Source of the DNA: an uncultured Holophagales bacterium
GTDB lineage: Bacteria > Acidobacteriota > Thermoanaerobaculia > Multivoradales > UBA5704
Reading direction: 5' to 3'
Assembly (NCBI GenBank): GCA_963842525.1
Contig: CAWJGT010000020.1
Coordinates: forward strand, 32,001-96,000
Length of the DNA stretch: 64,000 nucleotides
The translations under genes were made by a program, and so were the position numbers. The notes under the pieces are model-generated. The model was not told the origin of the DNA, made no database searches, and was given only the letters and a program-made list of their open reading frames with translations. Positions 10,358 to 63,307 of the stretch are shown here, piece after piece (position 1 is the first letter of the stretch; each line of letters begins with the position of its first letter).

Positions 10358-13300
10358 GCTTCACCCTGCCGCTCTCGCCAGGCCAGCGGGGCCTCTGGTT
10401 CCTGCATCGCCTGCATCCGGACAGCTCGGCCTATCACCTGGCCCTGGCGTCGCGGATCCTCAGCGCGATGCCGGCGGAGGCGATCCGTGGCTTCTTCCAG
10501 GAGCAGGTCGACCGCCACGAGGCCCTGCGCACCACGTTCCCTCTCGAAGGCGACGAGCCGGTCCAGCGCGTGGCCGATCCCTCCGAACACACCGAGTTGG
10601 CGTTCGAGGAGATCGACGCCACCGGATGGAGCGAGGCCGCTTTCCGGGAACGTCTGGAGCAGGAGGCGTGGAAGCCGTTCGATCTGGAGCGCGGGCCGCT
10701 GTTCCGTGTCCAGGTCTTCCAGCGGGTGAGCGAGCGGGTGCTTCTGGTCGTGGTGCATCACATCGTGGTGGATTTCGGGTCGTTCTACGGGATGCTGAGC
10801 AGCCCTCTCCCCCTGGCCCCCTCTCCCGCAGGAGCGGGGGAGGGGGAACGGCTCCAATACCGGGATTTCCTGCGCTGGCAGGAAGAGATGCTAGGGGGGA
10901 AAACGGGGGAGGAGCTGTGGGCGTTCTGGCGGGAGCGGCTGGCGGGATTGCCGGTGCTGGAGCTGCCAACGGACCGGCCGCGGCGCACGGGTGTCCCGGA
11001 GCGGGGCGGCAGCCGCTGGCACGAGATCGGGCCCGAGGTGGTGCGGCCGCTCAAGGCGCTGGCGCGCTCGCAGGGAGGGACGCTCTATGTGGCTCTTCTG
11101 GCGGGGTTCCAGGCGCTTCTTTCTCGCTACACGGGGCAGACCGATTTCGCGGTGGGCTCGCCCGCGGCCGGCAGGCCGAAGGGCTTCGCCCGGACGATGG
11201 GCTACTTCACGAATCCGCTCGCGGTGCGGGCGGATCTCTCCGGCGACCCGTCTTTCCTGGAGCTGCTCGGCCGTGTCCGCGCCCGGGTCTCCGAGGCTCT
11301 GGACCACCAGCACCTACCCCTGCCGGTCATCGTCGAGCGTCTACGTTTGGAGGCGTTCCGGACGCTTTTCGTTTTCCACCGGGACCCCTCGGGCCTGGAG
11401 GGGATGGTGGGCTTCGCGCTCGGCGAAGGGGGAGGTCTGCTGCGCTGGGGCGATCTGGAGCTGGAGCCGGTGGCCCTGCCGCCGCGGGCGGCACAGTTCA
11501 ACGTGACCCTGGCGGCGGGAGAGCGGCGGGGGAATCTGGGCCTCCAGCTCGTGTACAGCGCGGACATCTTTGACGCTTCGACCGCAGGGCGCTGGCTGGA
11601 GCATCTTGCCGTGCTCCTCGAAGCCGCAGCGGCCCAACCAGAGATGCCGCTCCGGGAGCTGCCGCTGTTGACCGCGTGGGAGAGGCAGCAGGTCCTGCTG
11701 GAGGTCAACGAGGCGAGCGAGATCGATCTGCCCTGGTCCCGTCTGGAGGAGGGATTCGAACGGCAGGCAGACCGGACGCCGGAAGCGGTCGCGGTGATCG
11801 ACGGCGACAGGCGGATCACCTACCGCGAGATGCGGGATCGTGTGATCGCGCTGGCCGAGTCACCTGAGCCATCTGAACGGGCAGGTGGTGGGGGTGAGGA
11901 TGCCCCGGAACGTCGAGATGGTGGCGACCCTGCTCGGAGTCCTGAAAGCAGGAGCCACCTACCTGCCGCTCGACCCATCGTATCCAGAGGAACGAATCAA
12001 CTTTCTCCTGGAGGACTCGGGGGCCTGTTCTGTGCTTCAGAGCACCAACGACGTTCCCCCTCTCCCGGCGGTGGGGGGGCGATGGGAGAGGGGGCCAGGG
12101 GGTGAGGTCGCCTACCTCATCTACACCTCCGGCTCCACCGGCCGTCCCAAAGGCGTCGCCATCGAGCACGCCAGCGCCGTCCGCCTCGTCGCCTGGGCCG
12201 GCAAGACCTACTCCCCCGAAGAGCTTTCCGGCGTCCTGGCCTCGACCTCGATCAGCTTCGACCTCTCCATTTTCGAGATCTTTGTCCCCCTCTCCTTCGG
12301 CGGGACGGTGATCCTGGCTGACAACGCCTTGGCGTTGCCTACCCTCCCGGCTGCCGGTGAGGTGACGCTGATCAACACGGTCCCTTCGGCCATCGCCGCC
12401 CTGCTGGACCTCGGGCCGCTGCCGCCACAGGTGCGGACGGTCAACCTGGCTGGCGAGCCGCTGCGGCGCTCGCTGGCGGATCGGGTGCTCGCCACCGGCG
12501 TCCGGCTCTGGGACCTCTACGGCCCCTCGGAGGACACGACCTATTCGACGGGCGCGGAGGTCCGGGCCGGCGATCCGGACGAGCCCTCGATCGGCTGGCC
12601 CGTAGCGGGATCGCGGGCCTACGTCGTCGATGCTGTGCTCCAGCCCTTGCCGGTCGGTGTCCCTGGGGAGCTGTGCCTGGGTGGAGGAGGGCTGGCGCGG
12701 GGGTACCTGGACCGGCCGGATCTGACGGCCGAACGGTTCGTGCCCGATCCGTTCTCCGGCGGAAGGCTCTACCGGACAGGCGACCTGGCCCGGAGACGGC
12801 CGGACGGAAACCTCGAATACCTGGGCCGGCTGGACCACCAGGTCAAGATCCGGGGGTTCCGCATCGAGCCGGGGGAGATCGAAGCGGCGCTGCTGTCCCA
12901 CCCTGGGGTGCGCGAAGCGGTCGTGGTGGCGCGTGACGAGGCCCTGGTGGCCTACGTCGCGCTGACCTCGGAGACCCCCGATCTGGCGGCGTACCTGCGC
13001 TCCCGCCTGCCTGCGCCCTTCGTGCCATCGGCCTTCGTGGTGCTGCCGGCCCTGCCCCTCACACCCAACGGCAAGGTGGATCGCAAGGCACTTCCTGCGC
13101 CGGAGCGGATGGGAGCGCAGACCGTCGAGGAGCCGGTCGGTCCGGTTGAAGAGGCGCTCGCCGGAATCTGGGCCGAGGTCCTCGGCCTTGATCAGGTGGG
13201 CCGGCACGAGAGCTTCTTCGAGCTGGGCGGTCATTCGCTGCTGGCGGTCCAGGTAGCGTCGCGCGTGCGCCGCGTCCTCGGCCGCGAGATCCCCCTGACT

Positions 13301-16300
13301 GACATCTTCGAGGCGCCCACGGTCGCCACACTGGCGAAGCGGCTCGGCGATGGGCTGGGGGCGGCACCCTCGCCGCCGCCGCTCCTGCCGGCTGACCCGG
13401 AGCTTCGCGCCGCGCCCGCGCCGCTCTCTTTCGCCCAGGAGCGGCTCTGGTTCCTCAACCGGCTCGATCCCGGCTCCGCCGTCTACAACATGCCCGCAGC
13501 GGTTCGCCTGACAGGGGATCTCGCCGCGTCCGCGCTCGGCCGCGCGCTCGCCGAGATCGTCCGCCGCCATGGAGCGCTGCGTGCCGTCTTCCACCCCGGC
13601 GAGGAGGGACCGGTGCAGGTGGTCTCGAAGGCGGGTTTCCCGCTGCCGTGGATCGATCTCACAGAGCTGGTTCGAGAGGTCGAGCCGGAGGCCCGGCGGA
13701 TCACCCGGGAGGAGGCCTCGCGGCCCTTCGATCTGGAGGCGGGGCCGGTCTTCCGCGCCATGCTCTTCCGGCTGGGCCCTGGGGACCACCTGCTCCTGGT
13801 CAACCTCCACCACATCGTCAGCGACGGCTGGTCCCTGGGCCTCCTCGTCCGCGAGCTGACGTTTCTCTACGACGCTTTCCGCGAAGTCTCTGCCTTCTCC
13901 CTTGCCGGAGCTGCCGGTCCAGTATGCCGATTATGCCCGCTGGCAGCGGAGCTGGCTGGAGGGCGAGGTCCTGACCTCCGAGCTGTCCTGGTGGCGCGAG
14001 TCCCTGGCCGGCCTGCCGGAAAGGCTCGATCTGCCTACCGACCATCCCCGCCGGGCAGGGATGGGGACGCGGCGCGGAGCCAGGCGGCCCGTGCGGCTCG
14101 GCACCAGCCTGACGCGACAGATCACCGATCTGTCCCGCCAGGAGGGCGCCACGCCGTTCATGGTGGTGCTTGCCGGCTTCCAGGCCCTGCTGGGGCGCTG
14201 GGCCGGTCAAGACGATCTGGCGGTCGGCAGCCCGATCGCCGGCCGGACGCGGATCGAGGTGGAGAACCTGGTCGGGCTCTTCGTCAAAACGCTGGTCCTG
14301 CGAGGAGACCTGCGCGGTGACCCTGCCGTCCGCGAGCTCCTGGCCCGGACGCGGCGGACCGTGCTGGCCGCCCACGAGCACCAGCATCTCCCGTTCGAAA
14401 AGCTGGTGGAGGAGCTGGCACCGGCGCGGGAGCTGGGGAGGACCCCGCTGTTCGAGGCGATGCTGGCCTTTCAGACCGCCTCTCCCGGCGCTCCCGAGCT
14501 GCCCGGCCTGGAGGTCGAGGTTGTGCCGGTCGAGACAGGGACGGCGAAATTCGACCTCCTCCTGGACCTGACCGAGCACGCCGGCAAGCTGGCGGGCTGG
14601 CTCGAATACGACGCCGGCCTGTTCGAGGCGCCAACAGTCGATCGCCTGCTGGGGCATTTCGAGGCGCTGCTGTCCGGCATGGTGGCCGCCCCTGGAGACA
14701 AAGTCCACGACCTGGCGCTGCTATCCGAGGTCGAGAGACATCAACTGCTGGCGGAGGCGAACGACCAGGGGGCGGCTGAGCCGCGCTGGGCGTTGCTCCA
14801 CGAGGGCTTCGAGCAGCAGGCGCAACGCACGCCGGATGCAGTGGCGGTCGTCTGGGGCGAGGAGAGGATCACCTACCGCCATCTGAACGAAAGCGCCGAC
14901 CGGCTGGCCACAGAGCTGCGAAGTCGAGGAGCCGGCCCGGAGAGGATCATCGGGATCTCCCTCCCGCGTACCCCCGAGATGATCGTGGCCCTGCTCGCCG
15001 TGCTCAAGGCTGAAGCCGCCTATCTCCCCCTCGATCCGTCCTATCCGCCGGACCGGATCGCATTCCTGCTCGCGGACGCTGGTGTGGACCTCCTCATTGG
15101 CAGCCCCGTAGGGGCGGCCGGAATTAGCCCGGGATTTCAATCCCGGGAATCGGGCGCATCCCCAAATCTCCAGAGCCCCGCCAGGGGCGACAGGAATCCG
15201 GCCGGCGAGCCCCTGCCGCCCCTAACGGGGCTGGTGGATGGGGGTGGCTTTCCCTTCCGGGCCTGAAGGCCCGGGCTAATTCCGGCCGCCCCTGCGGGGC
15301 TAGCTCGCCTACCTCATCTACACCTCCGGCTCCACCGGCCGCCCCAAAGGCGTCGCCATCGAGCACGCCAGCGCCGTGCGCCTCGTCGCCTGGGCCGGGG
15401 AGACCTACTCGCCCGAAGATCTCTCCGGCGTCCTCGCCTCCACCTCGATCAATTTCGACCTCTCGATCTTCGAGATCTTCGTCCCTCTCTCTTTCGGAGG
15501 GACGGTCATCCTGGCCGAGAACGCCCTCGCCCTGCCCACCCTGCCCGCGCGGGGAGAGGTGACCCTGCTCAACACGGTCCCTTCCGCCCTCGCCGCCCTG
15601 CTGGACCTCGGGCCGCTCCCGCCGTCGATCCGCACGGTCAACCTGGCTGGCGAGCCGCTGCGGCGCGGGCTTGCCGAGCGGGTCTATCGGAGGGGGCGGC
15701 GGGCGTGGAGCGGCTGTGGAACCTCTACGGCCCGTCCGAGGACACGACCTATTCGACCGGCTCGCTCGTCGAGCCGGGCTTGGCCGGGGAGCCCGCGATC
15801 GGCTGGCCGGTGGCCGGCTCGCGGGGCTATGTGGTCGACGCTTCGTTGCGGCTCCAACCCCCCGGCGTTCGCGGGGAGCTGTGTCTGGGCGGGGGAGGGT
15901 TGGCGCGGGGCTACATGGGCCGGCCGGAGCTGACGGCGGAACGGTTCGTGCCCGATCCGCTCTCCGGCGAGCCGGGCGGGCGCCTCTATCGGACGGGAGA
16001 CCTGACCCGCAGGAGGCCGGACGGGGCTCTCGAATACCTGGGCCGGCTGGATCACCAGGTCAAGATTCGGGGGTTCCGGATCGAGCCGGGGGAGATCGAG
16101 GCGGTGCTGCTGTCCCATCCCGAGGTGCGCGAGGCAGTGGTGGTGGCTCGGGAAGGGGCTCTGGTGGCCTACGTCTCGCTCACTTCGGAGGGTCTGGATC
16201 TGGCGGCGTACCTGCGCTCCCGCCTGCCGGCTCCCTTCGTGCCCTCGGCCTTCGTGGTGCTGCCGGCTCTGCCCTTGACCCCCAACGGCAAGGTGGACCG

Positions 16301-19300
16301 CAAGGCTCTGCCGGCGCCGGAGAGGATCGGGCAGAGGATCTTCGAGGAGCCGGTCGGACCCGTCGAAGAGGCTCTCGCCGAGGTCTGGACCGATGTCCTC
16401 GGCCGTGACCGTGTGGGCCGGCACGAGAGCTTCTTCGAGCTGGGAGGGCATTCGCTGCTGGCCACCCGGGTGCTGTCCCGGATCTCGCGCCGGTTCGGCG
16501 TGGATCTGCCGTTGGGTGCGCTCTTCGAATCGCCGACCGTGGCGGCGCTGGCCGGCAGGATCGCGGCCGCCGGTGGAGACGCAGCGCCGCCGCTGCGGCC
16601 TGTGCTCGTTCCACACGAGGGGCGACAGGACCTGCCGCTCTCCTTCGCCCAGCAGCGGCTCTGGTTCCTCGACCAGCTCCAACCCGGCTCGGCGGCCTAC
16701 AACATGCCCGGAGCGGCCTTCCTGGAGGGACCGCTCGCGCCGGCCGCGCTGGCCGCGAGCCTCACTGCACTCGTGGCGCGGCACGAGGCTCTGCGCACGC
16801 GCTTCGCCGAGCGCGACGGTCGTCCGGTCCAGATCATCGATCCGCCGCAGCCGGTGGAGCTGTCCATGGTCGAGGCTTCCGAGGAAGAGGCGTACACACT
16901 GGTCCAGCGCGAAGCGGCGCGCCCCTTCGATCTCGGCCGCGGTCCCCTTCTGCGTGCCGGCCTGGTACGGCTCGACCCTGAGCGCCACCTGCTGTGGCTG
17001 GTGCTCCACCACATCGTCGCCGACGGCTGGTCGCTCGGCGTTCTGATAGGCGACCTGGCGGCTCTGTACGCAGGGCTCTCCCTCCCCGAGCTGCCGGTCC
17101 AGTACGCCGACTACGCGATCTGGCAGCGGGAGCAGCCTGCCGACCTGGACTGGTGGAAGGAGCGCTTGGCAGGTGCGCCGGAGACCTTGGAGCTGCCGGC
17201 GGACCGTCCGCGCCCAGCCGTGCGCACCCAGCGCGGCTTCCAGGTGAGGACGTCGCTGCCGCCCGATCTGGCTGACGGCCTGCGTGACCTCTGCCGCCAG
17301 CGTGGAGCGACCCTGTTCCTGGGCCTGCTGGCCGCCTTCGAGACCCTGCTCCTCCGCTACACCGGCCAGGAGGATCTGCTGGTGGGATCGGCGGTGGCGA
17401 ACCGCAACCGGCCGGAGGTGGAGGGGCTGATCGGCCTCTTCGCCAACACTCTGGTGCTGCGCGGCGATCTGGCGGGTGATCCGTCCTTCGCCGAGGCTCT
17501 GGACCGGGCGCGGGAGGGCACCCTCAGCGCCTTCGCCCACCAGGACGTGTCGATCGAGAAGCTCGTCGAGGAGCTGCATCCTGGCCGGGAGTTGGGACAG
17601 AACCCGCTCTTCCAGGTGGTCATCGTCCTCCAGAACGCGCCCATCCGCCTGGAGCTGCCGGGGCTCACGCTGCGCCGGGTCGAGGTGGAGACCGGGACCG
17701 CGAAGTTCGACCTCACCCTGGAGCTGACCGAGAGCGCAGAGGGGTTGACCGCCGTCTGGGAGCTGAGCAGCGACCTGTTCGAGCCGGCGACAGGGCGGCG
17801 GATGGCGGCTCATTTCGAGAGCCTCGTGCGGAGCGCGGTGGCAGCGCCCGACCAGAGGCTTTCTGATCTGACTCTGCTGGGTGAGGACGAGCGCCGGCAG
17901 CTCTTGTTCGAGTGGAAGCTCGGCTCCTACGGCAGCGCCGCTGGAGCCGCTGGAGATACCGGTCCACCGCCTGTTCGAAGAGCAGGCCCGGAGCACGCCG
18001 GACCGGATCGCGCTCGTCGCGGGCAACCTGGAGCTGACGTATGGCGAGCTGGACGCGCGGGCCAACCGCCTGGCCCGTCATCTCCAGGACCTGGGCGTCC
18101 GGCCCGAGACCCTGGTGGGCGTGCTCCTCGAACGGTCACCGGAAATGATTGAGGCGTTCCTGGCGATCCTCAAGGCCGGCGGCGCCTATGTGCCGCTCGA
18201 TCCCTCCTGGCCGGAGGAGCGCCGGGCCGAGCTGATCGATGAGGCTGGCGTCCGGGTCATTCCCTGGGACCGCGGGCGTCCCGCCCGCACCATCCAAAAA
18301 AATGCGGGCGGGACGCCCGCGGTCCCAGGGGTGGGACTTCTGGCTTATGCGATGTTCACTTCGGGCTCGACCGGCCGGCCGAAGACGGTGGGCATCGAGC
18401 ACCGGAGCATCGTGCGGCTTGTGCGCGGCGCGGACTGGGCGGATCTCGGGCGGGATCAGGTCTTTCTCCAGCTTGCTTCGCCTGCCTTCGACGCCGCGAC
18501 TCTGGAGATCTGGGGCGCTCTCGCCAATGGCGGACGGCTGGCACTTTTCCCGCCAGGAGCCCCGTCGGTCGAGGACCTGGGAGCGGCCCTGGAGAGGCAC
18601 GGGATCACCACCCTCTGGCTCACCGCGGGTCTCTTCCATCAGGTCGTCGAGAGCAGGATCGACATCCTCCGCGGCGTGCGGCAACTCCTGGCTGGCGGCG
18701 ATGTGCTGTCGCCCGAGGCGGTCGACCGGGTGGTCGTCGAGCTGCCCGGCTGCCGGATGATCAACGGCTACGGTCCGACCGAGAACACCACATTTACCTG
18801 TTGTCACGAGGTCCGGGGGCCTCTTTCCGGCCGCACGGTGCCGATCGGCCGGCCGATCGCGGGGACGACGGTCTACGTTCTGGACGCCCATCTCCAGCCG
18901 GTCCCGGAGCTCGTTCCCGGGGAGCTTCTGGCGGGCGGCGAAGGTCTGGCCCGGGGCTATCTGGGCCGGCCCGACCTGACCGCCGAGCGCTTCGTGCCCA
19001 GCCCCCCCTTCGAGGATGAGCCGCCGGGTGCGCGCCTCTATCGCACGGGCGACCGGGTGCGTTGGTCGCCCCGTGGCGAGCTGGAGTTCCTGGGGAGGCT
19101 GGACCGGCAGGTCAAGATCCGGGGCTTCCGCGTCGAGCCCGCCGAGATCGAGGCCGTGCTGGCGCGCCATCCCGGTGTGTCCCAGGCTGCCGTGATCGTG
19201 GTCGACGATACGGCGGACCGGCGGCTCGTGGCCTGTGTGGTCCCCGCGGGCGAGGATCTCTCTGGGCTGCGCGATTGGCTGGCAGACCGGCTGCCGGCGT

Positions 19301-22300
19301 ATCTCATCCCCTCCCTGGTCACACTTCCCGATCTTCCGCTCACGCCCAACGGCAAGGTGGACCGGGCAGCGCTCCGAGGCCGTCTGCCCGAGGTCGAGCC
19401 GCAGAGCGGTTATGTCGCACCGCGCACTCCGGTCGAGGAGCTGCTGGCCGGCGTCTGGGCCGAGGTGCTCGGCGTCGAGCGCATCGGGATCCACGACGAC
19501 TTCTTCGAGCTGGGTGGGCACTCCCTGCTCGCCACGCGAGTCGTCTCCCGGGTGCGGGCGGCGCTGGACGCCGAGGTGCCGCTGGCCGCGCTGTTCGAGA
19601 CCCCGACCGTGGCAGGGCTGGCCCGCCTGATCGAGGAACGGCGCGTCCGGCAGAGCCCTCTCCCCCTGGCCCCCTCTCCCGTGCGTCCCCCGTCCGCCCG
19701 CCCCGAACGGGAGAGGGGGAACGAGAGCGGGCTGGGTGGTGGCGCCCCTCTCCCGCTCGGGGTGGGGGGTGGTGGCCGTGCGGGGGAGGGGTCGGGGGAG
19801 GGGGGCGAGGCCCCTCTCTCCTTTGCCCAGGAGCGGCTCTGGTTCCTGGACCGGCTGGAGCCCGGCTCGGCCACCTACAACTTGCCGGTGGCGGTGCGGC
19901 TGCGCGGGAACCTGGACATCTCCGCCCTGGAGAGGAGCCTGGGCGAGATCCTTCGCCGCCACGCGGCGCTGCGGACCACCTTCCACGAGTCCGGTGATGG
20001 ACCCATCCAGGTCGTTGCCCCGCCGGAGCCGTTCCGCCTGCCCGTCGACGATGCGCCCGGCAGCATGGAGGAGGAGGCGCGCTGTCCCTTCGATCTGGAG
20101 GCGGGACCGATCTTCCGCGCCCATCTCTTCCGGCTGGCTCCCGGGGACCACCTGCTCCTGGTCAATCTCCACCACATTGCCAGCGACGGCTGGTCCATGG
20201 GCATCCTCGTCCGCGAGGTGGCGGCTCTCTACGGCGCCTTCCGCGAAGGCCGGCCGTCGCCTCTGCCCGAGCTGCCGGTCCAGTACGCCGACTATGCCCG
20301 TTGGCAGCGGAGCTGGCTTTCCGGCGAGGCCCTGGCCGCCGAGCTGGCCTGGTGGCGAGAGACCCTGGCGGGCCTGCCCGAGAGGCTCGACCTGCCTACC
20401 GACCATCCGCGCCGAGGCGGAGCGGAGACGCGAAGCGGAGCCAGACGGCCGGTGCGGCTCGGCAGCGAGCTGACGCGGCAGATCGCCGGCCTGTCCCGCC
20501 GGGAGGGCGCCACGCCGTTCATGGTGGTCCTCGCCGCCTTCCAGACTGTTCTGGGGCGCTGGGCCGGCCAGGAGGATCTGGCCGTGGGCAGCCCGATCGC
20601 CGGCCGGACGCGGATGGAGGTGGAGGATCTGATCGGGTTCTTCGTCAATACGCTGGTCCTGCGGGGAGACCTGCGCGGCGATCCCACCGTTCGCGATCTG
20701 CTCGTCCGGACGCGGCGCATGGTGCTGGCGACCCATGAGCACCAGCACCTCCCGTTCGAGAAGCTGGTGGAGGAGCTGTCGCCTGTACGGCAGCTCGGGA
20801 GGACCCCCCTGTTCGAGGCGATGCTGGCCTTCCAGACCGCCTTGCCCGGGGCACCCGAGCTTCCAGGTCTGGAGGTGGAGATCGTGCCGGTCGATCCGGG
20901 GGTGGCGAAATTCGATCTCCTCCTGGACCTGACCGAGCGTGGCGGCGAGCTGGTGGGCTGGCTGGAGCACGACGCCGACCTGTTCGAGGCGCCGACCCTC
21001 GATCGTCTGCTGGGGCATTTCGAGGCGCTGCTGTCCGGCATGGTGTCTTCTTCTGGAGAGAGGGTCTTCGGCCTGCCGCTTCTATCCGCGGCGGAACGCC
21101 ACCAGATCCTCGAGTGGAATGCGAGCGCAGTAGCCCGGCCCGCGGAGGCTTCGATCCCTGCCCTGTTCCTGGAGCAGGTGGACCGGACCCCTGAGCAGGA
21201 GGCTGTCCGCTTCGCCGGCGAGAGCCTCACCTACCGCGATCTCGAAGAAAGATCGAGCCGGCTCGCCCGCCACCTGCGCCGGCTCGGAGTCGGACCGGAA
21301 GTCGTGGTGGGGATCGCCCTGGACCGTTCCCTGGAGCTGATCATCGCGCTCTACGCCACACTCAAGGCGGGCGGCGCCTACCTGCCTCTCGATCTCTCCC
21401 ATCCGGACGAGAGGCTTGCCTTCCTCCTGGCCGAGGCCGGCGCACCGGTCGTCCTGACCCTTGCGGAGCACGCGCCGCGCTTCGCCGGCTCCCGGGCCGC
21501 GGTCGTCCGCCTCGACGCCGAACGCTCCGTGATCGAGGCGGAGAGCACTGACCGTCCACCCCTGGAGATCCGGGGCGATCATCTCGCCTACGTCATCTTC
21601 ACCTCGGGCTCGACCGGGGCTCCCAAGGGAGCGATGAACACCCATGCGGCGATCGCCAACCGGCTGCTGTGGATGCAGGAAGCCTATCGGCTGGACGCGT
21701 CGGACCGGGTGCTGCAGAAGACGCCGTCCACCTTCGACGTTTCGGTCTGGGAATTCTTCTGGCCTCTGATCGCGGGTGCGACTCTGGTGATCGCCCGGCC
21801 GGAAGGACACCGCGATTCTTCGTACCTCCTGCGGACGATCCACGACGAGGCGATCACGGTCCTCCACTTCGTCCCGTCCATGCTGCAGGTCTTCCTCGAC
21901 GAGCCGGGGGTGGAGGAGGCGGCCAGCCGTCTGCGGCAGGTGATGGCGAGCGGCGAGGCGCTCCCGGCCGACCTTGCAAGTCGCTTTGCGGAGCGCCTGC
22001 CGGGAGTGCGGCTGCACAACCTCTACGGACCGACCGAGGCCGCCGTGGACGTCACCTCGTGGACGGTCGAGGCCGGGGAGCCGGCGGTCTCCCTCGGCCG
22101 GCCGATCGCGAACCTCGAGATCCATATCCTGGACCGCTCTTTCCGGCCGGTGCCCGTTGGCGTGGCCGGGGAGCTGTGCATCGGCGGCGCCGGTCTCGCC
22201 CGCGGCTATCTCGGCCGTCCGGATCTGACGCCGGAACGCTTCGTCCCCGCTCTGAGCGGGGCTCCTGGAGCGCGCCTGTACCGCACCGGCGACCTGGCCT

Positions 22301-25300
22301 GTTTCCGTCCGGACGGCAGGATCGAGTACCTGGGGCGCATCGACCACCAGGTCAAGATCCGCGGGCTCCGCATCGAGCCGGGGGAGATCGAGGCCGCGAT
22401 CCTCGGCCATTCAGTCGTCAAAGAAGCGGTGGTGGTGGCCCGCGAGGACCGGCCGGGCGACCGCCGCCTGGTGGCCTATCTGGTGCCGGGACAGGGGGAA
22501 TTGCGCATCGAGGATCTGCGGGCCTCCCTCCGCGCGCGGCTCCCCGAGCACATGGTGCCGTCGGCCTTCATGGTGCTGGAAGCCTTGCCGTTGACCGCGA
22601 ATGGCAAGCTCGACCGCCGGGCTCTCCCAGCTCCGGAGGGAAGACCACGGGCCGCGAGTGTCCCGCCGCGCACCGAGGCCGAGCAGGCCATCGCCGGCGC
22701 CTGGCGCGAGGCGCTCGGGCTGGAGGCGGTCGGGGTCGACGAGAGCTTCTTCGATCTGGGCGGCCATTCGCTCCTGGCCACGCGGGTGCTCTCCCGGATC
22801 CGGGAGGCGTTCCGGGTGGACCTGCCGCTGCGCGCCCTCTTCGAGGAGCCGACCGTGGCCGGTCTCGCCCGGCGGATCGAGGCGGCCGTCCAGGGGCCAC
22901 ATCTCCCGAGCCTGCCGATCGTTCCGATTCCGCGCGTGGGTGCCTTGCCGCTCTCCTTCGCACAGCAGCGGCTCTGGTTCCTCGATCAGCTCGAGCCCGG
23001 CGCCCCCCTCTACAACATCCCCGCGGCCCTGCGCGCCACCGGACCGCTCGACGTCCCTGCCCTGACGCACGCCCTCGGCGAGGTCGGCCGTCGTCACGAG
23101 GCCCTGCGGACGACCTTCGCCTCGGTGGAGGGGGCGCCGGTGCAGGTCGTCCAGCCGCCGTCCGCCTTCTCTCTGCCGGTCGTGGACCTCTCCGGTCTCG
23201 CAGAGCCTGAAGGGCCGGTGCTCGGGCTCGCGGCGAAAGAGGCCCTCCGGCCCTTCGACCTGGCGCAGGGACCGGTCTGGCGCGCTCTCTGCCTGCGGCT
23301 CGGCCCGGCCGACCACGTCCTCCTCGTCACCATGCATCACATCGCGAGCGACGGCTGGTCGATGGGCATCCTGGTCCGCGAGGTGCTGACACTCTACGGA
23401 GCGCATTTACCCCTGCCCGAGCTGCCGGTGCAGTACGCCGACTACGCCCTCTGGCAGAGAGACCGGCTCCAGGGCGATCTCCTCCAGAATGAGCTGGCGT
23501 ACTGGCGCGAACAGCTCGCCAGCCTGCCGGCGCTGGAGCTGCCGACCGACCGGCCGCGCCCCGCCATCCGCAGCCATCGCGGCAGCAACCGACCGGTGGA
23601 GCTGGGGGCCGACCTGACGGCCGGCCTGCGCCGTCTCGCCCGCCGCGAGGGGACCACGCTCTTCATGATCCTGCTCGCCGCTTTTGAGGCCCTGCTCGCA
23701 CGGCACAGCGGCCAGCGCGACCTGGCGGTGGGGAGCCCCATCGCGGGCCGGGAGCACCTGGAGATCGAGGGGCTGATCGGCTTCTTCGTGAACACCCTGG
23801 TCCTGCGCGGCGACCTGTCCGGAGATCCGCCGTTCCGCACCCTGCTCGCCCGGGCGCGCGAGACCGTCCTCGCGGCCCACCTCCATCAGGAAGTCCCCTT
23901 CGAGAGGCTGGTCGAAGAGCTGGAGCCGGACCGGAGCCCCAGCCGCACCCCCCTGTTCCAGGTGATGCTCTCGCTCGGCAATGCGCCGCGCGACATCCCC
24001 GAGACGCGGGGCCTGCGGCTGTGGCGCATGGATGCGGCCGAGATCCTCCCTCCGGTCGCCCGCTTCGATCTGAGCCTGGCTCTCGAAGAGCGGGAGGGTG
24101 GGCTCTCGGGTGTGTGGGAGCACAGCGCCGAGCTGTTCGACGCCACCACGATCGCCCGCATGGCGGGCCATCTGGAGAGGCTGCTCGCGGCTGTGGTCGC
24201 TGATCCCGGGCTCCGCCTCTCCGAGCTGCCGCTGCTCGGCGAGGTGGAGCGGCACCAGCTCGCCCTGGCGTGGAACGACACGACCGCGCCGGCTCCTCCG
24301 GACCTCCTCGTGCACCAGCTCTTCGAGGCCCAGGCGGAACGGCAACCCGAGGCGATCGCCTTGCGGCAGGGGAGCGAGGTCCTGACGTACGGCGAGCTGG
24401 CCGCCCTCTCCCATCGCCTGGCCCACCACCTCCGGCGCCTTAGGGTCCGTCCCGAGGAGCCGGTCGGGGTCTGCCTGGAACGGGTCCCACTGCGCATCGC
24501 GGCTCTCCTCGCGGTACTCCAGGCCGGCGGCGTCTATCTCCCGCTGGACCCGGCCTATCCGCGGGCGCGCCGCGAGCTCATGCTGCGCGATTCCGGGGCG
24601 CGGGTGCTGCTGACCTCCGGATGGCTGGCGACGCTGGGCTGGCCTGTCCCCAGGGTCGTTCCGCTGGACGAGATCGGGGCGGAGCTGGCCGCCGAGAGCC
24701 TCCAGTCCGCCGGCCGGAGCCGTGCGGCCCGAGATCCTGGCGTACATCCTCTACACCTCGGGGTCGACCGGCACGCCGAAGGGAATCGGGGTCGACCACG
24801 CCGCCGCCGTCGATCACTTCACGACGATCGTTCGTGCCTACGGGCTCGTTCCCGAGGATCGGGTGCTGCAGTTCGGGGCGCCCGGCTTCGATGTCTCCCT
24901 GGAGCAGATCCTCCCCACGCTGGCAGCCGGGGCCACGCTGATCCTGCCGCGCAACGAGCTGGTCAGCCCCGGCGAGCTGTTCTCCGTGCCTCCCGAGAGC
25001 GAGGTCACCGTCGTCAATGTGCCGACGGCCTATTGGCAGCAATGGGTCGGCGAGCTCGCCGACGGGAGAGCGCTTCCAGACCGGCTGCGGTTCGTGATCA
25101 CCGGCGGCGAGGCCATGGCGCTCGAATCGGCGCGTCTCTGGGCCGCGCTCCCCGGCAGCGGGCGGGTTCCGATGTTCAATGGCTACGGTCCGACCGAGGC
25201 GGTCGTGACCGCTACGATCGTCCCTCTCGGAGGCGACGGTCCCGGCGCTCCGGCGACGGTGCCGATCGGCTGGCTGCTCGCTCGCCGCACCGCCTGGGTG

Positions 25301-28300
25301 CTCGACCATGACGGCCGGCTCATGCCGCCGGGAGCCCATGGCGAGCTCTGCCTGGGCGGCGTGCTCGCTCGCGGCTATATCGGGCGGCCCGACCTGACGG
25401 CCGAGCGCTTCGTGCCGCACCCGTGGGGCGAGCCCGGGGCGCGGCTCTACCGGACCGGCGACCTGGCGCGGTATCTCCCCGATGGGAATCTCGAGTTCCT
25501 GGGACGGCTGGACGAGCAGGTGAAGGTCCGCGGTTTCCGCATCGAGCTGGGGGAGGTCGAGGCGGTCCTGGCCAGCCATCCCGCGGTGCGGGAGGCGGTG
25601 GTCCTCGCCATCGCGGACGGCCAGGGGGGCCGCAGGCTGGCGGGATTTGTCGTTCCCATCCCGGACGCCGCGGTCGCGCCGGCCGATCTGCGCGAGCACC
25701 TCCGGGAGCGCCTGCCGGACTACATGGTCCCCGGCGCCTTCTCGGTCATGGAATCGCTGCCGCTCACGCCCCACGGCAAGGTGGACCGGCGAGCCCTGGC
25801 CCACATCGCCCCGACGCCCTTATTGGCCGGGGAGGAGCACGCGGCCCCACGCGGCCCCGTCGAAGAGATCGTGGCGGCCCTCTGGGCCGACGTGCTGGGG
25901 ACCGACCGGATCGGCCGTGGCGACGGGTTCTTCGAGCTGGGAGGCCACTCGCTCCTGGCGACCCAGGTGGTCTCGCGGGTGCGCAAGACCCTGGGGATCG
26001 AGATCCCCCTGCGGGCCCTCTTCGAGGCGCCCACCCTGAGCGGCTTCGCCGGGAGAGTGGCCCGGGAGATCGAGGCCGGAAGCCGGACTGCCGTGCCGCC
26101 GATCCCCTCCCTGCCAAGGCGCCCCGGCGAGCGCTTCCCCCTGTCCTTCGCCCAGCAGCGGCTCTGGTTCCTGGATCAGCTCGAGCCCGGCTCCGCGGTC
26201 TATAACCTGCCGCTCGCGATCGATCTTTTTGGGCCTCTCGATGTGTCTGCGCTCGCCCGCGCCCTGGCCACGATCGCACTCCGTCACGACGCGCTGCGCA
26301 CGACCTTCCCCGCCGAAGATGGCAACCCGGTGCAGGTCGTCGCGGAGCTTCGGCGTCCCGTGCTCCCGGTGATCGACCTGACCGGCGTCGAAGGAGCCGT
26401 GGACACGGTCGCCGGAGAGCTGGCCCGCCGGCCGTTCGACCTGGAACGGGGCCCTCTCCTGCGCGCGTGCCTCCTGCGGGTGGAGAAGGAAGCGCACCGG
26501 CTCGTCGTGAGCATGCACCACATCGTGAGCGACGGCTGGTCGGTCGGCGTGTTCGCCCGCGAGCTGAGCGCGCTGTACGAGGCCTTCCGGGCCGGCCGGC
26601 CCTCTCCGCTGCCCGAGCTGCCGGTGCAGTACCCGGCCTTTGCGGTCTGGCAGCGGCAGTGGCTCGCGGGCGAGGTTTTGGACACGGAGCTGGCGTACTG
26701 GCGCGAGCAGCTTCACGGCCTGCCGCGCCGCCTGGAGCTGCCCGAGGACCGTGCCTGGAGGCGCCGGCGCGGAGCCGCGCGCGGAGGTCTCCGCCCGGTG
26801 GTTTTCTCCGAGGAGCTGGGGCGCCGCCTGCGAGAGCTCGCCCGCGCCGAGGGAGCGACGTCGTTCATGATCCTGCTGGCCGGCTTCCAGGCGCTCCTCG
26901 GCCGCTGCGCCGGGCAGGAGGATTTCGCCGTCGGCACCCCCGTCGCCGGGCGCTCCGCGGCCGAGCTGGAGGGGCTGATCGGCTTCTTCGTCAACACCCT
27001 GGTGCTCCGCGCCGACCTGGCAGGGGAGCCGGGTTTCCGTGCCCTCCTGCGGCGGGTTAGGGAGCGTGTTCTGGCGGCGCAGGCCCACCAGCACCTCCCG
27101 TTCGAGAAGCTGGTGGAGGAGCTGGAGCCCACGCGAAGCCTGGAGCACGCCCCCCTGTTCCAGGCCATGCTCGCCTTCCAGAACACGCCCCGCGAGACGT
27201 TGGACCTGCCCGGCCTCCTCACCATTCCGGTCGATGTCCATACCGGGACGGCCAAGCTCGATCTCCTCCTGTCCCTGGAGGAGGTCGACGGCCGCATCGC
27301 CGGCGCCCTGGAGCACGACGCGGACCGCTTCGACGCCACCACGATCGACCGCCTCCTGGCGTGGTACGAGGCGCTCCTCGCCGCCGCGGTGGCCGCTCCG
27401 GAACGGCCGGTCTTCGACCTGTCGCTGCTGTCTGCCGCGGAGAGTCACCAGGTGCAGGTGGAGTGGAACGACCGCGGAGGGGTCGAGCCCGGCTGGACGC
27501 TCCTGCACGAGGGCTTCGAGCGACAGGCGCAGCGCACGCCCGAGGCGATAGCCCTGGTCTGGGGTCAGGAGCGCCTCACGTACCGCGACCTCAACGAGAA
27601 GGCTGACCGCCTGGCCGAGGAGTTACGCCGCCGCGGAGCCGGTCCGGAGCGGGTGGTCGGGATCTCCCTCCCGCGCACCCCCGAGATGATCGTCGCCATG
27701 CTCGCCGTCCTTAAATCCGGGGCCGCCTATGTCCCCCTCGATCCATCCTACCCACCGGACCGGATCGCGTTCATGACCGACGACGCAGGTGTGAGCCTGA
27801 TCCTCACCTCCGAGGGTGGATTGGGGGACAAGCCCCAAAGGGGCGCCGGCATAAAGCCTGGGGTTTCAACCCCAGGTCGGCGGCTTGAGGATTCAGGCTG
27901 CCCCTATCCTGGGGTTGAAACCCCAGGCTTTATGCCGGCGCCCCTTCGGGGCTCCGAGGTCGCCTACCTCATCTACACCTCCGGCTCCACCGGCCGCCCC
28001 AAGGGCGTCGCCATCGAGCACGCCAGTGCCGTCCGTCTCGTCGCCTGGGCTTTGGAAGCTTTTTCTCGCGAAGAGCTGTCCGGTGTCCTCGCCTCGACCT
28101 CGATCAACTTCGACCTGTCGATCTTCGAGATCTTCGTCCCCCTCTCCTGCGGTGGGGCTGTGATCCTGGCCGACGATGCCCTTGCCCTGCCATCCCTGTC
28201 CGCGATGGGGGAGGTGACCCTGGTCAACACGGTGCCGTCCGCCATGGCCGCGCTGCTCGACCTGGGGCCGCTCCCACCCTCGATTCGCACCGTCAACCTG

Positions 28301-31300
28301 GCGGGCGAGCCGCTGCGGCGCGCTCTGGCCGAGCGGGTATATGGGTCGGGTGTGGAGAGGCTATGGAATCTCTACGGCCCGTCCGAAGACACGACCTACT
28401 CGACCGGCTCTGTGGTCGAGCGGGGCCGAAATCCTCACCCCCTGACCCCCTCTCCCATCTCCCTTCCACCCCCCGCCGGGAGAGGGGGAACATATCCGAA
28501 GCCATTCGGCGGGCTCGCCACGGGGGCATCAACAACGTCCCCCCTCTCCCGGGGATGGGAGGGTGGGAGATGGGAGAGGGGGACAGGGGGTGAGGACCCA
28601 CGGCCTGAGCCGTCCATCGGCCGCCCCGTCGCCGGCTCCCTGGCGTACGTGGTTGATGCTTCTCTCCGTATCCAGCCCTTCGGTGTGCCGGGCGAGCTGT
28701 GTCTGGGTGGAGGAGGGGTGGCTCGGGGCTACCTCGGCCGGCCGGAGCTGACGGCTGAGCGGTTCGTGCCGGATCCGTTCGGTGTGGCTCCCGGCGGCCG
28801 GCTCTACCGGACCGGCGACCGGGTGCGCTGGCGAACGGACGGGTCGCTCGACTACCTGGGCCGGCTGGACCGGCAGGTCAAGATCCGCGGGTTCCGGATC
28901 GAGCCGGGAGAGATCGAGGCGGTCCTGCTCGCCGGTCCCGGGGTCGAGGCGGCGGCGGTGCTGCCCCGCGGCGGCACCCTCGTGGCCTATGTGGTGGCTG
29001 CAACGGGCACCGGAGAGCTGCGGGCGTGGTTGGCCGGCCGGCTTCCGGCGCCCTTGGTGCCCTCGACGTTCGTCCGGCTCGATGCGCTGCCACTGACTCC
29101 GAACGGCAAGGTGGACCGCTATGCTCTCGCCCGCATCGCTCCGACCGTGGAGGCCCGGGAGCTCGCGGCTCCCAGCGGTCCGATCGAGGAGACCCTGGCG
29201 GCGATCTGGAGCGAGGTCCTCGGCATCGATCGGATCGGCGCCGGCGACTCCTTCTTCGACCTCGGCGGGCACTCCCTTCTGGCCACTCGCGCGCTGGCCC
29301 GGGTGCGCGAGGCCTTCCAGATCGACCTGCCGTTGCGCGACCTGTTCGAGGCGCCGACGGTCCAGGAGCTGGCCCGCCGGGTGGAGGCGGCTCTGGGCGG
29401 GGCTGCCGCACCGGCTCCGCCGATCGTCCCGGTCTCCAGAGAAGAGGACCTGCCGCTCTCCTTCGCGCAGCAGCGGCTCTGGCTCATCGACCAGCTCGAA
29501 CCCGGCGGCTCGGTCTACAACGTCTCCCTGGCACTGCGGCTGGATGGCCCCCTCGACCCCGAAGCCCTGGCCCGCGCCTTCTCCGAGGTGGCTCGCCGGC
29601 ACGAGGTCCTGCGGACCACCTTCGCGGTGCGCCACGGCGATCCGGTCCAGGTCATCGGGCCGCCATTGCCCATCCCCCTGCCGGTTCTCGATCTGACCGG
29701 GCTGCCTGAGCCGGTACGGTCGGCCGAGGTCAGGCGGCAGGCTCGCGAGGAGGGCGCTCGGCCTTTCGACCTTGGGACGGGTCCGCTGCTGCGGGCCGGC
29801 CTCCTATGGCTCGGCAGCGAAAGCTGGGTCCTGCTCGCCACCCTGCACCACATCGTGAGCGACGAGTGGTCGCTGCGCCTGCTCTTCCGTGAGCTGACCG
29901 TGCTCTATGCCGCCTTCCGGCAGGGGCTTCCGTCACCTCTGCCCGAGTTGCCCGTGCAGTTCGCGGACTTCGCGGTCTGGCAGCGTCGCTGGCTTACAGG
30001 AGACGTCCTGGAGGCGCAGCTCGCCTACTGGCGCGGACGGCTGGGGAGCGATCCACCTGTGCTGGAGCTGCCCACCGACCGGCCGCGGCCGTCGCTCCAG
30101 ACCTTCCGCGGCGCCCGCCTCGGCTTTTCTCTCCCGGCCGGGGCCTCTGCCGCGCTGCAGGCTCTCGGCCGCCGGCGGGGCGCGACATCGTTCATGACCC
30201 TGCTCGCCGCGTTTCAGGCCCTACTGGCGCGCACCAGCGGGCAGACCGACCTCACCGTGGGCACCCCGATCGCCGCCCGGCACCGCGTCGAGGTCGAGGA
30301 TCTGATCGGGTTCTTCCTCAACACCCTGGTCGTGCGGGCCGACCTGTCCGGCGATCCGGGGTTCCTGGAGATCCTCGGCCGGGCGCGCGAGCGGTCCCTG
30401 GAGGCCTTCGCCCACCAGGATCTGCCCTTCGAGAAGCTCGTCGACGAGCTGAAGCCGCGCCGCAGCCTCAGCCATCCGCCGCTCTTCCAGGCCCTGTTCG
30501 TCCTCGTCCACGCCGCGCGGCTGGAGGCGGAGTCGCTCGACATCCGGCTGAGTAACCTCGACTCCGAGGTCTCGACCGCCAAGTTCGACCTCACCTTGTC
30601 CCTGCTGGCCGATGGCGAGGCCCTCTCGGGCGTGATCGAATTCAACACCGACCTGTTCGACCGCACGACCGTGCTGCGCCTGGCCACGCATCTGGCGGTG
30701 CTGTGCGATGCCGCGGCGCGCGATCCGGAGCAGCCTCTTTCGGCCCTGCCGCTCCTCGCCGCGGCCGAGGAGCACCAGGTCAGCTTCGAGTGGAACGATA
30801 CGGCAGTGCCGGGCCGGGCGGAGGTCCCGGTCCACCGGCTGTTCGAGGCCTGGGTGGAGAAGGCGCCGGATCGGCCGGCGGTGATCTGGGACGGTGGGGT
30901 CTGGACCTACGCGGACCTCGACGGCCGGGCGGCGCGGCTGGCCCGCCGTCTCCGGTCGCTCGGCATCGGCCCCGAAGTCCCGGTGGGAGTCTGCGCCGAG
31001 CGCGGCCCAGAGCTGTCGGTCGCCCTGCTGGCGGTGCTCAAGGCGGGAGGCGCCTACCTCCCGGTCGATCCGCGCTACCCGCGCGAGCGCCAGGCGTTCA
31101 TGCTGGCCGACGCCGGGGCGCCGGTCGTGCTCGTGCAGGAGGCCCTTGCTGGCTCTCTCGCGGAGCACACGGGGAGGACCGTCCTGCTGAACGACGACGC
31201 CTGGAGCGGCGAGGCCCTGGAGACAGCGGTGCCTCATCTCGGCCCGGAGCAGATGTGCTATCTCATCTACACCTCGGGCTCCACGGGCCGGCCCAAGGGG

Positions 31301-32713: not shown

Positions 32714-32716
32714 CCC

Positions 32717-33118
32717 CATTGGCAGCAAATTAGAGCAACAAGGCCGCAGCGGAGCGTCATAGGTTTGCATCGAATCGGGCTTGACGCGCTGCGAAAAAAG
32801 GTCATACTGCTGCGACCCGAGGTCGTGCACGAGCCGCGCACGCTCGCGCCGCTGTGACTCACGGCCGAGTCGCAGCGACGCGAGGATGGTTTGCATCACG
32901 CCGACGCAGATTTGCACCGGCACAAGGTAGAGTCGCAGCAAAAAGAGCCCGTGCGCGAGCGGCAGAGGGACGATTGGCAGCGGCTGGAGGTCGAGCACGA
33001 GCGGAAGAGGGTCGCCCGTGCCGTCAAGGGCCTCATTTCGCAGCAAAAAAAGGGCGAGTCACAGCGGCGCGAGGCCGGCTTGCAGCAGCGCGAGGTCGAG
33101 GGCTGCGGAAGAGGGTGA
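32717..33118. repeat. Degenerate 21-nt-period tandem array (about 19 units) between the convergent NRPS and AAA genes
   Basis: Units such as gagtcgcagcgacgcgaggat, gagtcgcagcaaaaagagccc, gagtcacagcggcgcgaggcc and ggcttgcagcagcgcgaggtc lie in 21-nt register. Confidence 0.6.
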
Positions 33119-33121
33119 GCT

Positions 33122-62936: not shown

Positions 62937-63307
62937 ATTTCTTTGCATGAAAGGATAGCGAGCTCCAGGATGGACGTTGCGGGCCGCGAGGATCTTGCCG
63001 TCGTCCGCTGCCGCTGCCGGTTCTCCCTCTCCCGGTCGGTGGGGGGCAATAGGAGAGAGAGCCAGGGGGCGTGCATGAGGTCCACCGCGGATCAACCAAG
63101 GGTCTCCTGGCAGTCGACCGGTCCGTTCTCTCACTTGCCGCAGTCAGAGCGGGCGACCCAAATGGCGGTGTTTCGGGGATGTGGAGCGTCGGGTGCAGGG
63201 CGGGACGGTACTTCAAGGGCGGGATCATCGCGGTCTTCTTCCGAGAGAAGCACGAGCGTCCGCTTCCGCCGAGAATCCTCTGGCACCTCAAAGGCCGGAA
63301 AGTCACC

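Follow-up and report, generated by a model that had tools for sequence, protein, structure and literature searches.

High-copy palindromic repeats before the A3 motif of adenylation domains in a Holophagales bacterium

Four adenylation (A) domains of one NRPS cluster carry, just before their A3 core motif, a stretch of DNA that also occurs elsewhere in the genome. How did these stretches come to lie at the same site in each of them? The window in which they are found is the whole stretch of 64,000 nucleotides that was analysed, taken from a contig of an uncultured Holophagales bacterium. The original prediction, based on this DNA alone, assigned the four elements to three families and saw in them independent events at one site, with site-directed targeting or break repair as possible mechanisms.

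The frames of the cluster match PF00501 (AMP-binding) with E-values from 1e-11 to 1e-201, DNA of the A3 motif is found at ten sites, and the best solved relatives are LgrA (7e-149) and McyA (2e-129); the A-domain frames of the cluster yielded no further Pfam family. Searching the genome with blastn, the cluster's own copies left out, produces pile-ups of hits with sharp right ends at 12107 (element A), 15301 (B1), 18330 (C) and 27953 (B2), which are the ends originally predicted. This confirms that the four stretches are copies of genome-wide high-copy palindromic repeats. Their coordinates, and those of the surrounding motifs, are given in Table 1.

Table 1. Repeat copies and core motifs of the cluster, in positions of the window.
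Feature	Position	Strand	Remarks
Family A unit, PKS module	3392..3444	+	between KS-side linker and carrier domain
Family A unit, C-A linker of first complete NRPS module	5124..5177	-	in frame, ..PHPPTPSPIAPPAPGRGG..
A2 core motif LKAGATYLPLD, Ala domain with element A	11945..11974	+	A2-to-YTSG 147 nt
Family A repeat unit	12052..12107	+	57-nt model, single copy, oriented like the gene
A3 core motif VAYLIYTSGSTGRPKG, Ala domain with element A	12107..12154	+	start of Ala A-core paralogy
Family B1 element	15101..15301		201-nt MITE with inverted arms
A3 core motif, Ala domain with B1	15304..15351	+	A2 end ~15035; A2-to-YTSG 283 nt
Family C hairpin	18262..18330		arms 18262-18288 and 18304-18330, 15-nt loop
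A3 core motif LAYAMFTSGSTGRPKT, domain with C	18340..18387	+	A2-to-YTSG 153 nt
Family A unit, partial matches	19657..19723	-	downstream of C-bearing A domain, in long frame-1 ORF
Family B2 element	27831..27953		123 nt with inverted arms
A3 core motif, Ala domain with B2	27960..28007	+	A2-to-YTSG 231 nt
Family A inverted doublet, same Ala domain as B2	28433..28595		in frame, between A5 and A6

The pile-up over element A starts at 12052 or 12056, and 380 hits end at 12107; translated in frame, the element reads ..PPLPAVGGRWERGPGGE, directly abutting VAYLIYTSGSTG. For B1, 27 hits start at the first position of the element and 27 end at its last; its inverted arms are 32 nt long and 96.9% identical, those of B2 46 nt and 97.8%. 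The arms of the C hairpin (27/28 nt) match at 100%, and since full-length genomic copies of this family, among the matches listed, mostly measure 112-117 nt, the window copy has an internal deletion. Between the end of the element and the L/V of (L/V)AY..TSGSTG there are 0 codons for A, 1 for B1, 3 for C and 2 for B2. The reading frame is kept across A, C (..WDRGRPARTIQKNAGGTPAVPG) and B2 (..PQRGAGIKPGVSTPGRRLEDSGCPYPGVETPGFMPAPLRG), and B1 is the one exception among the four: it lies out of frame, with stops inside and a TAG at the junction; the frame changes across the A2-A3 loop, and the domain is broken.

Is the native loop interrupted or replaced? In 201 element-free domains, the A2 end and YTSG are separated by a median of 201 nt (IQR 193-210). 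Once the element is subtracted, 91, 83, 84 and 103 nt remain in the domains carrying A, B1, C and B2, that is, the conserved flanks only: the replacement of a native segment, as first proposed, holds for these four domains. Genome-wide, however, replacement is one end of a continuum with plain insertions (remainder ~190-205 nt), and the remainder across element-bearing loops ranges from 81 to 269 nt. Trimmed element ends accompany lost native loop: the B1 copy at C9:1404811 (contig C9) retains both its outer ends and the native loop, whereas the window copy has neither, its ends being trimmed relative to intergenic B1 copies. Trimmed ends and a continuum with plain insertions agree better with insertion and later deletion than with repeats filling a repaired break, one of the mechanisms suggested at first.

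The repeats themselves are of several kinds. Family A is a REP/REPIN-type repeat, a short GC-rich, high-copy hairpin that is mostly extragenic and of which nhmmer finds 803 copies in the genome; most of them are arranged in inverted doublets, 252 in the (-,+) arrangement against 1 in the (+,-), with spacers mostly of 32-45 or 76-97 nt and a tail reaching 133 nt. Family C is a long hairpin. Family B1 is probably a MITE from an IS200/IS605-like element, equal to the terminal arms of a transposase-bearing element: inverted B1 arms flank the Y1_Tnp gene C32:133626-133973, 80-180 nt away on each side and ~510 nt apart, and the 201-nt MITE is two such arms joined. B2 is probably a MITE as well, its arms adjoining another Y1_Tnp gene, C9:225386-225727. 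REP/REPIN-RAYT systems and IS200/IS605 MITEs likewise combine inverted hairpin doublets, a mostly extragenic distribution and, as for our family B, arms that flank Y1_Tnp genes. A further likeness to REP/REPIN-RAYT is that no conserved flank was seen beyond the terminus GGGGGTGAGGG in 798 oriented family-A copies; a difference is that around the Y1_Tnp genes, of which 11 out of 20 matches were examined, a range of 900 nt contained no copy of family A or C. TIR-flanked Y1 transposases are reported in Acidobacteria in sections of Di Nocera et al. 2013 (PMC3733652); compared with the REP families treated there, the family-A unit (consensus 57 nt, 10-bp stem, ~18-nt loop) is longer, and its mobility is presumed.

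A genome-wide survey, suggested with the original prediction, finds a sharp hotspot: the positions of the repeats are not random. With the zone test set at 20 nt or more of high-copy repeat within -330..0 of YTSG, 39 of 286 A domains are positive. Repeat density in the A2-A3 zone reaches 0.41 per kb per module, compared with 0-0.07 in seven other zones, and this zone is 6-13 times denser than the other module zones, including the C-A, A-T and T-C linkers. Of the family-A copies, 708 lie outside modules and 95 within them, 45 in the pre-A3 zone and 50 elsewhere; the concentration of 45 of the 95 in-module copies in the 335 nt before A3 has a binomial P of 1e-23, for copies that are partly non-independent because of doublets and paralogues. 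Outside modules, strictly intragenic, in-frame copies make up 43 of 702 classifiable ones (6%), against 897 of 2000 random positions (45%). The pre-A3 site alone holds 26 of the 93 strictly intragenic family-A copies. Repeats also occur in 36 other ORFs, of which 34 were scanned with Pfam, including those of DNA pol III alpha, AcrB, UvrD-like and ABC proteins.

The window domains do carry families A, B and C, as predicted, but genome-wide the site has received at least five (A, B1, B2, C and D). The in-loop copies take both orientations and all six frames (10, 8, 8, 7, 7 and 3 copies). Left junctions lie 59-151 nt after A2, with one at 237, and right junctions 13-108 nt before YTSG, mostly at 13-36 nt, clustering 0-7 codons from LAY. 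One junction, GGGGTGAGGGCCTCGCCTAC, recurs across different domains and genomes.

The reading frame is kept in nearly all loops that carry an element: in 34 of 35 the length from A2 to A3 is divisible by 3 (a count that includes one assembly-duplicate pair), the exception being the window B1 domain, and 39 of 42 loops are open in the frame of A3. Among intergenic B1 copies, only 18% of frames are stop-free. The pattern extends to other genomes. Of 92 genomes belonging to the same family, 27 contain the junction between element A and A3, with 0 for the reversed control. In one A domain the in-frame peptide ..GGAPLPEAG.A.GEGSGVR.. is retained by all 8 orthologous sequences, which come from eight genomes; one orthologue is frameshifted further upstream, and one has the element partly deleted.

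What does the loop look like? In an AlphaFold2 model of the B2-bearing Ala domain, computed from an alignment of 7 sequences only, the core has a pLDDT of 85-97, and two segments fall below 50: residues 116-161, the loop encoded by B2, and residues 321-376, which correspond to the family-A doublet. The placement of the loop follows this predicted model, no solved structure carrying such an insert having been found. Labby et al., in 2015, reportedly described adenylation domains interrupted by an auxiliary domain between a2 and a3. Auxiliary domains between A2 and A3 also appear in sections of Baunach et al. 2021 (PMC8097286). The insertion point is the same, and in those proteins the A2-A3 region accepts large foreign sequence with adenylation kept; theirs are folded catalytic domains, while the inserts described here are repeat-encoded peptides of 20-70 residues, of low complexity and with nothing that points to an independent function.

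We propose a selective filter acting on REP/MITE-type insertions at a permissive loop, followed by trimming through deletions, a reading to which we give a rough probability of 0.6. The four elements would be fossil copies of such repeats. Repeats would insert widely, and copies that break genes would be purged, in line with the strong depletion of repeats from coding DNA in general. The A2-A3 segment, variable and presumably at the surface, would be a naturally tolerant site, hypervariable enough to accept almost any stop-free Gly/Pro-rich peptide; this tolerance is suggested by the predicted disorder of the loop and by the interrupted A domains already known. With 286 copies in this one genome, the site could then act as a sink; the enrichment and the keeping of the frame are observed. 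In-frame deletions would finally trim the native loop and the element ends down to the conserved flanks: the continuum is observed, its direction is our conjecture, and old insertions would come to resemble replacements flush with LAY. Some data fit this reading less easily. The linkers are so much poorer in repeats that tolerance must be assumed to differ strongly between regions. By a rough estimate, assuming ~12% non-coding DNA, the density of family A in the variable segment is at least that of intergenic DNA, which a pure filter does not predict unless copies persist longer in loops. The clustering of right ends near LAY and the recurring junction also count against a filter.

The clustered right ends and the recurring junction would favour active targeting, in which the A2-A3 DNA, or its single-stranded or hairpin state next to A3, would be preferred by palindromes mobilised by Y1 transposases; the hotspot would then reflect a bias of insertion and not survival. 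The contrast in density with every other module zone points the same way, as do the two best full-length B1 matches of the genome, themselves located in A2-A3 loops, and the short specific targets on single-stranded DNA that IS200/IS605-type enzymes use (abstract of PMC6006769). However, the site is used, in both orientations and six frames, by five unrelated families whose termini differ; family A shows no conserved flank, junctions are scattered over tens of nucleotides, copies inside loops are truncated compared with intergenic ones, and most family-A copies lie outside NRPS modules. Site-directed targeting, as first suggested, is not indicated by these data, and we regard it as unlikely.

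The Ala domains raise the question of recombination. They had been described as close paralogues carrying different elements: the elements do differ (A, B1 and B2), but the paralogy starts only at the element end, with 82-96% identity from there onward and ~55-70% upstream. The A-core paralogy beginning at the A3 motif at 12107 also covers those at 15304 and 27960, and the shared segment runs from A3 to ~A8-A10, each domain keeping its own C-A linker and A1-A2. Such a segment resembles the A-core recombination units of Baunach et al. 2021 (PMC8097286), in sections of which the A3-A9 exchange is the commonest natural NRPS recombination unit; that paper is silent on transposons, the string 'transpos' having 0 occurrences in its text. 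What differs here is that the 5' boundary coincides with a mobile repeat, a coincidence that is not general genome-wide. One could imagine that the precise 5' border of this unit attracts or retains repeats, which, as portable homology or as fragile hairpins, would trigger A3-to-A9 swaps among the ~286 domains; in this lineage of acidobacteria, NRPS substrate specificity would then be shuffled under the drive of a mobile-element family, which seems to us distinctly unlikely.

A related conjecture is that, where A-core swaps (A3 to ~A9) had their 5' breakpoint, the elements were captured as filler or acted as portable homology, and so mark, or perhaps promote, such shuffling. Exactly at the right end of the element, Ala identity jumps from ~55-65% to 86-96%, the largest discontinuities of a genome-wide scan are those of the Ala domains (0.63 to 0.86), and the native loop of the four window domains has given way to the element instead of being interrupted by it. 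Yet the median difference between upstream and downstream identity is 0.069 in element-bearing domains (n=32) against 0.054 in element-free ones (n=176), and exceeds 0.2 only in the window's own domains; plain insertions with an intact native loop exist, and the 3' boundary has no matching hotspot. We propose that the recently shared A-core of the three Ala domains ends at the element because the loops are heterologous, and a heterologous loop would halt a conversion tract there anyway. A role as filler or portable homology is improbable.

If a few original insertions had been copied through duplication of modules and short-patch gene conversion between the A2 and A3 motifs, independent hits would be far fewer than they appear. 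The same insertion is indeed present at window position 12117, C30:22525 and C9:1337292, at C18:25927 and C19:505003, and at C18:22756 and C19:508234, and conserved motifs ~200 nt apart bracket the loop. Against this, loops differ from one another in family, orientation, frame and junction position, near-identical context pairs amount to only one, and for 22 of 37 family-typed element-bearing domains the nearest paralogue is element-free. Both B1 and B2 are more similar to other genomic copies (~91% over the full length, 96-98% in the arms) than to one another, and are thus separate insertions. With different families in the Ala paralogues and most nearest paralogues element-free, the predicted independent events at one site stand up well, and spread by copying has little probability. 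That the cluster is a dead pseudogene or a mis-assembly, its elements neutral junk or chimeras, is extremely improbable: the cluster has ~10 frame changes in 31 kb and stops inside B1, and 24 of 266 A3-A8 intervals are broken genome-wide (about one frame break per 8 kb in NRPS genes), but rpoB, rpoC, gyrA, gyrB and dnaK are intact in the assembly, element-bearing loops keep their frame, and both the junction in independent genomes and the orthologous in-frame insertion argue against it.

The insertions call to mind the Rickettsia palindromic elements (RPEs) that Ogata et al. are said to have described in 2000. Intragenic REPs and RPEs are known (sections of PMC3733652 and PMC10969869), and share with our repeats the form of small high-copy palindromes inserted in frame into unrelated host proteins, at sites presumably tolerated by the fold, and translated as an extra peptide. 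The loop insertions are RPE-like in that nearly all are in frame and the host ORF is kept open, the window B1 copy being an exception. Unlike RPEs, they favour one structural site in one domain family, which takes a large share of the intragenic family-A copies; this site has received at least five families, often the native segment has been deleted and the repeat has become the loop, and the insertions occur in a soil bacterium rich in GC and in NRPS genes rather than in a reduced intracellular genome.

The cluster carries further family-A copies outside the A2-A3 loops (Table 1). The inverted doublet of the B2-bearing domain adds ~56 residues, and is common to paralogues on contigs C30 and C9.

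The window has a G+C content of 70%, and its first 32.7 kb are occupied, according to Pfam, by a hybrid PKS/NRPS with ten adenylation (A) domains. In four of these, the loop between core motifs A2 and A3 contains a stretch that blastn pile-ups of matches outside the cluster identify as a copy of a genome-wide repeat with sharp ends. The repeats belong to families A (REP/REPIN type), B1 and B2 (MITE-like) and C (a hairpin).

Features of the cluster and of its repeats (window coordinates unless a contig is named)
Feature	Coordinates	Basis or remark
A3-motif DNA, ten A domains of the cluster	105, 5581, 8959, 12117, 15314, 18350, 21593, 24747, 27969, 31263	
Element A	12052/12056 to 12107	blastn pile-up
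Element B1	15101 to 15301	blastn pile-up; long inverted arms
Element C	arms 18262-18288 and 18304-18330	blastn pile-up; long inverted arms
Element B2	27831 to 27953	blastn pile-up; long inverted arms
Frame changes in PKS/NRPS (1-32700)	near 6389, 8919-8955, 9974-10082, 10246-10366, 11846-11856	
Frame changes, continued	13885-13893, 15098-15283, 15693-15711, 17947-17951, 24615-24722	
Family D, examples	C9:1408190-1408315, C9:1030820-1030950, C23 around 278399	

The original prediction placed these elements immediately before A3, and they do stop there: A, B1, C and B2 end 0, 1, 3 and 2 codons, respectively, ahead of the L/V of (L/V)AY..TSGSTG. Between the end of A2 and the YTSG of A3 lie 147, 283, 153 and 231 nucleotides in the A, B1, C and B2 domains, against a median of 201 nucleotides in 201 element-free domains. 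When the element is subtracted, 83-103 nucleotides are left, which correspond to the conserved flanks alone; the native variable segment has thus been lost, and the elements of the window are replacements, as had also been proposed. The reading frame runs on through elements A, C and B2; B1 is out of frame, with stops. A family-A doublet is also present in a fifth such A domain of the cluster (A3 at 105), mostly just upstream of the window.

The crowding of repeats before A3 extends to the whole genome. The survey of A domains yielded 287 A3 motifs and 286 distinct sites, since one pair, on contigs C18 and C19, is an assembly duplicate and was counted once. The end of C19 and C18 (around 531944 and 39448) share 1700 nucleotides around one A domain with 99.9% identity, probably an assembly overlap. 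If a high-copy repeat is defined by at least 85% identity, a length of at most 260 nucleotides and 10 or more copies once the NRPS are masked from the genome, such a repeat lies within 330 nucleotides before YTSG in 39 of the 286 modules, a density of 0.41 per kb per module. In each of the other seven zones, from -2400 to +1600, 0-14 modules have a repeat (0-0.07 per kb). Of the family-A copies, 45 are in the pre-YTSG zone, 50 in other parts of modules and 708 outside them, bearing in mind that copy counts differ from event counts because doublets and paralogue groups exist. At least five families are found in A2-A3 loops: A, B1, B2 and C in 37 domains, and the palindromic family D, about 125 nucleotides long with some 90 blastn matches, in frame in four more, where its peptide reads ..PGLTPGATQFRPPGS..PEPGGRH.VAQGVNPG..

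Most of these inserts can be translated. Element-bearing loops are open in the frame of A3 in 39 cases out of 42, when only 18% of the frames of intergenic B1 copies are free of stops. The A2-A3 distance is a multiple of three in 34/35 element-bearing loops and in 192/201 element-free loops. Family A uses all six frame and orientation classes, and the peptides encoded by the repeats are rich in Gly, Pro, Arg and Glu. Excision of the inserts at the level of RNA or protein was set aside, because open inserts that keep the frame are what translation predicts. The AlphaFold2 model for the domain with B2, built on an alignment of seven sequences only, gives the core blocks a pLDDT of 85-97, and drops below 50 exactly at residues 116-161, which are B2, and 321-376. 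The latter are a second in-frame insertion of this Ala domain, formed by an inverted doublet of family A that lies between A5 and A6 (window 28433-28595, about 56 extra residues); its paralogues on C30 and C9 have this insertion too, and the other two Ala domains, at 12117 and 15314, lack it. Compared with LgrA, the B2 peptide takes the position of the native A2-A3 stretch.

Outside NRPS modules, the repeats avoid genes: a strict intragenic test retains 43 of 702 classifiable family-A copies, versus 897 of 2000 random sites. In-frame copies of A, B1 and B2 also occur in 36 other long ORFs, 34 of which were scanned with Pfam (loci L131-L164). Their products include DNA polymerase III alpha, with the repeat within its PHP domain, ABC transporters and one of AcrB type, a UvrD-like helicase, one CHAT-TPR and one TIR-domain protein, and PKS/NRPS proteins; part of the 36 may be stop-to-stop ORFs that run over two genes.

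The hotspot may also reflect an insertion bias added to selection. Linkers are 6-13 times poorer in repeats than the pre-A3 zone, and right element ends crowd against LAY. Logos of 798 oriented copies of family A display no conserved flank that could serve as a target motif. Conserved flanks of B1 were considered as such a motif and rejected, as they belong to a longer element. With nhmmer, the 57-nucleotide unit of family A has 803 copies, and the merged loci number 61 for B1, 46 for B2 and 35 for C. Family A forms 252 inverted doublets, almost never in the opposite arrangement, and has a sharp terminus, GGGGGTGAGGG. Full-length Y1-transposase genes number at least eight in this genome. Inverted B1 arms stand on both sides of one of them, C32:133626-133973 (region C32:133449-134157, locus L011), with a third arm at C32:134810-134906, and B2 arms adjoin another, C9:225386-225727. 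Family B thus appears to be a MITE derived from an IS200-like element, and the element on C32 is likely the autonomous parent of B1. Among the 11 Y1_Tnp genes examined, none adjoins family A or C. The repeats of this genome agree with the REPs, RAYTs and intragenic REPs/RPEs described in PMC3733652 and PMC10969869.

Genome-wide, the loop without its element ranges from about 190-205 nucleotides, a plain insertion, down to 81-103 nucleotides, a full replacement. The near-complete B1 copy at C9:1404811 has its outer inverted ends and the full native loop, and the B1 of the window has neither; the C element of the window is 69 nucleotides long, versus 112-117 in most full-length copies listed. 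We infer from this range that insertion would come first, followed by in-frame deletions that halt at the conserved flanks. A pair of paralogues stood in for an orthologous empty site: the empty loop at window 21593 and the filled one at C30:29174 differ by a 150-nucleotide doublet and a diverged stretch of 31-39 nucleotides. No clean target duplication is seen in this pair, and about 39 nucleotides of native sequence are diverged or replaced.

Identity among the three Ala domains (12117, 15314 and 27969) is 82-96% between the end of the element and about +800/+1000, and about 55-70% upstream. These domains have in common a recently exchanged A-core, a known unit of natural NRPS recombination according to PMC8097286. 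Element A at 12117 is also present in the paralogues on C30 and C9, and B1 and B2 are each nearer to other genomic copies than to one another, so that at least three insertion events are needed; the proposal of independent events at one site is thus upheld. The idea that the repeats are recombination or repair filler fares less well. The identity scan gives the same picture in element-bearing and element-free domains, with a median upstream/downstream discontinuity of 0.069 (n=32) versus 0.054 (n=176), and consequently we do not take recombination as the general cause. A heterologous loop alone would stop a conversion tract at the element.

In related genomes, we searched for a junction formed by a family-A terminus, 10-40 nucleotides and A3-motif DNA, with the reversed pattern as control. 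Of the family's 92 genomes, 27 have the junction, among them all five other genomes of the genus and 8 of 11 of a second genus; none has the control pattern. Among the matches listed, 63 of 80 public records with the junction are labelled as Thermoanaerobaculia, Holophagales or Acidobacteriota MAGs. In one A domain, located on contig C34 around 558262 in this genome, the insert ..GGAPLPEAG.A.GEGSGVR.. lies between VLLDELG and LADHPAY, always in frame, in 8/8 sequences from eight genomes, one with the element partly deleted and one with a frameshift farther upstream. Since this insert was kept in eight genomes, some insertions are old and lie within conserved genes. When 20 relatives were searched at the DNA level with window 26500-29500, no ortholog-based empty/filled pair emerged for the cluster: all matches are at the level of paralogues (about 70% or less), and none aligns across the loop.

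The assembly, of 9.95 Mb in 34 contigs, has about ten coding-frame changes over 31 kb of the cluster. Across its NRPS genes, 24/266 A3-A8 intervals and 10/236 A2-A3 intervals are broken; rpoB, rpoC, gyrA, gyrB and dnaK are intact. Either indels of the assembly or genuine decay could account for the frame breaks. One public read run contains 8% of the sampled words, and none of its contigs, 151-438 nucleotides long and in some cases identical to the window, bridges an element or a frame change.

Intragenic palindromic repeats and the permissive a2-a3 site are both already known; we found no report of the two joined, here in an acidobacterial lineage. No published report that we found connects bacterial adenylation domains, or this lineage, with palindromic repeats or MITEs; the supplements of PMC3733652 (a list of intragenic REPs) and PMC8097286 may bear on the question. 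The text of a paper on a BGC-rich acidobacterial genus does not mention repeats, transposition, palindromes or recombination. For NRPS biology and engineering, about one seventh of the A domains of this genome, together with domains in 26 related genomes, form a large natural experiment, in which 20-70 arbitrary repeat-encoded residues are inserted at a single place, in some cases replacing the entire native variable segment, with the reading frame preserved, in one instance between genera. This points to the A2-A3 loop as a site where tags, linkers and insertions should be tolerated. Domain callers and specificity predictors should expect unusual A domains in this lineage. For mobile elements, otherwise extragenic repeats can accumulate in coding DNA where a genome has one permissive loop in hundreds of copies, and filled, trimmed and empty sites are material for studying insert erosion. 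If the elements also seeded A-core swaps, a rarer reading, transposable elements would be directly tied to natural-product diversification.

Contig C30 contains, at 20683-33727, a mosaic paralogue of the cluster. It matches window 10365-12562 and 19813-21521 at about 85%, and the two segments are some 3 kb closer together on C30, a spacing consistent with one module having been gained or lost. Toward the window's right end, beyond the NRPS, lie copies of the family-C arm and a partial family-A unit (63308-63336 and 63020-63046).
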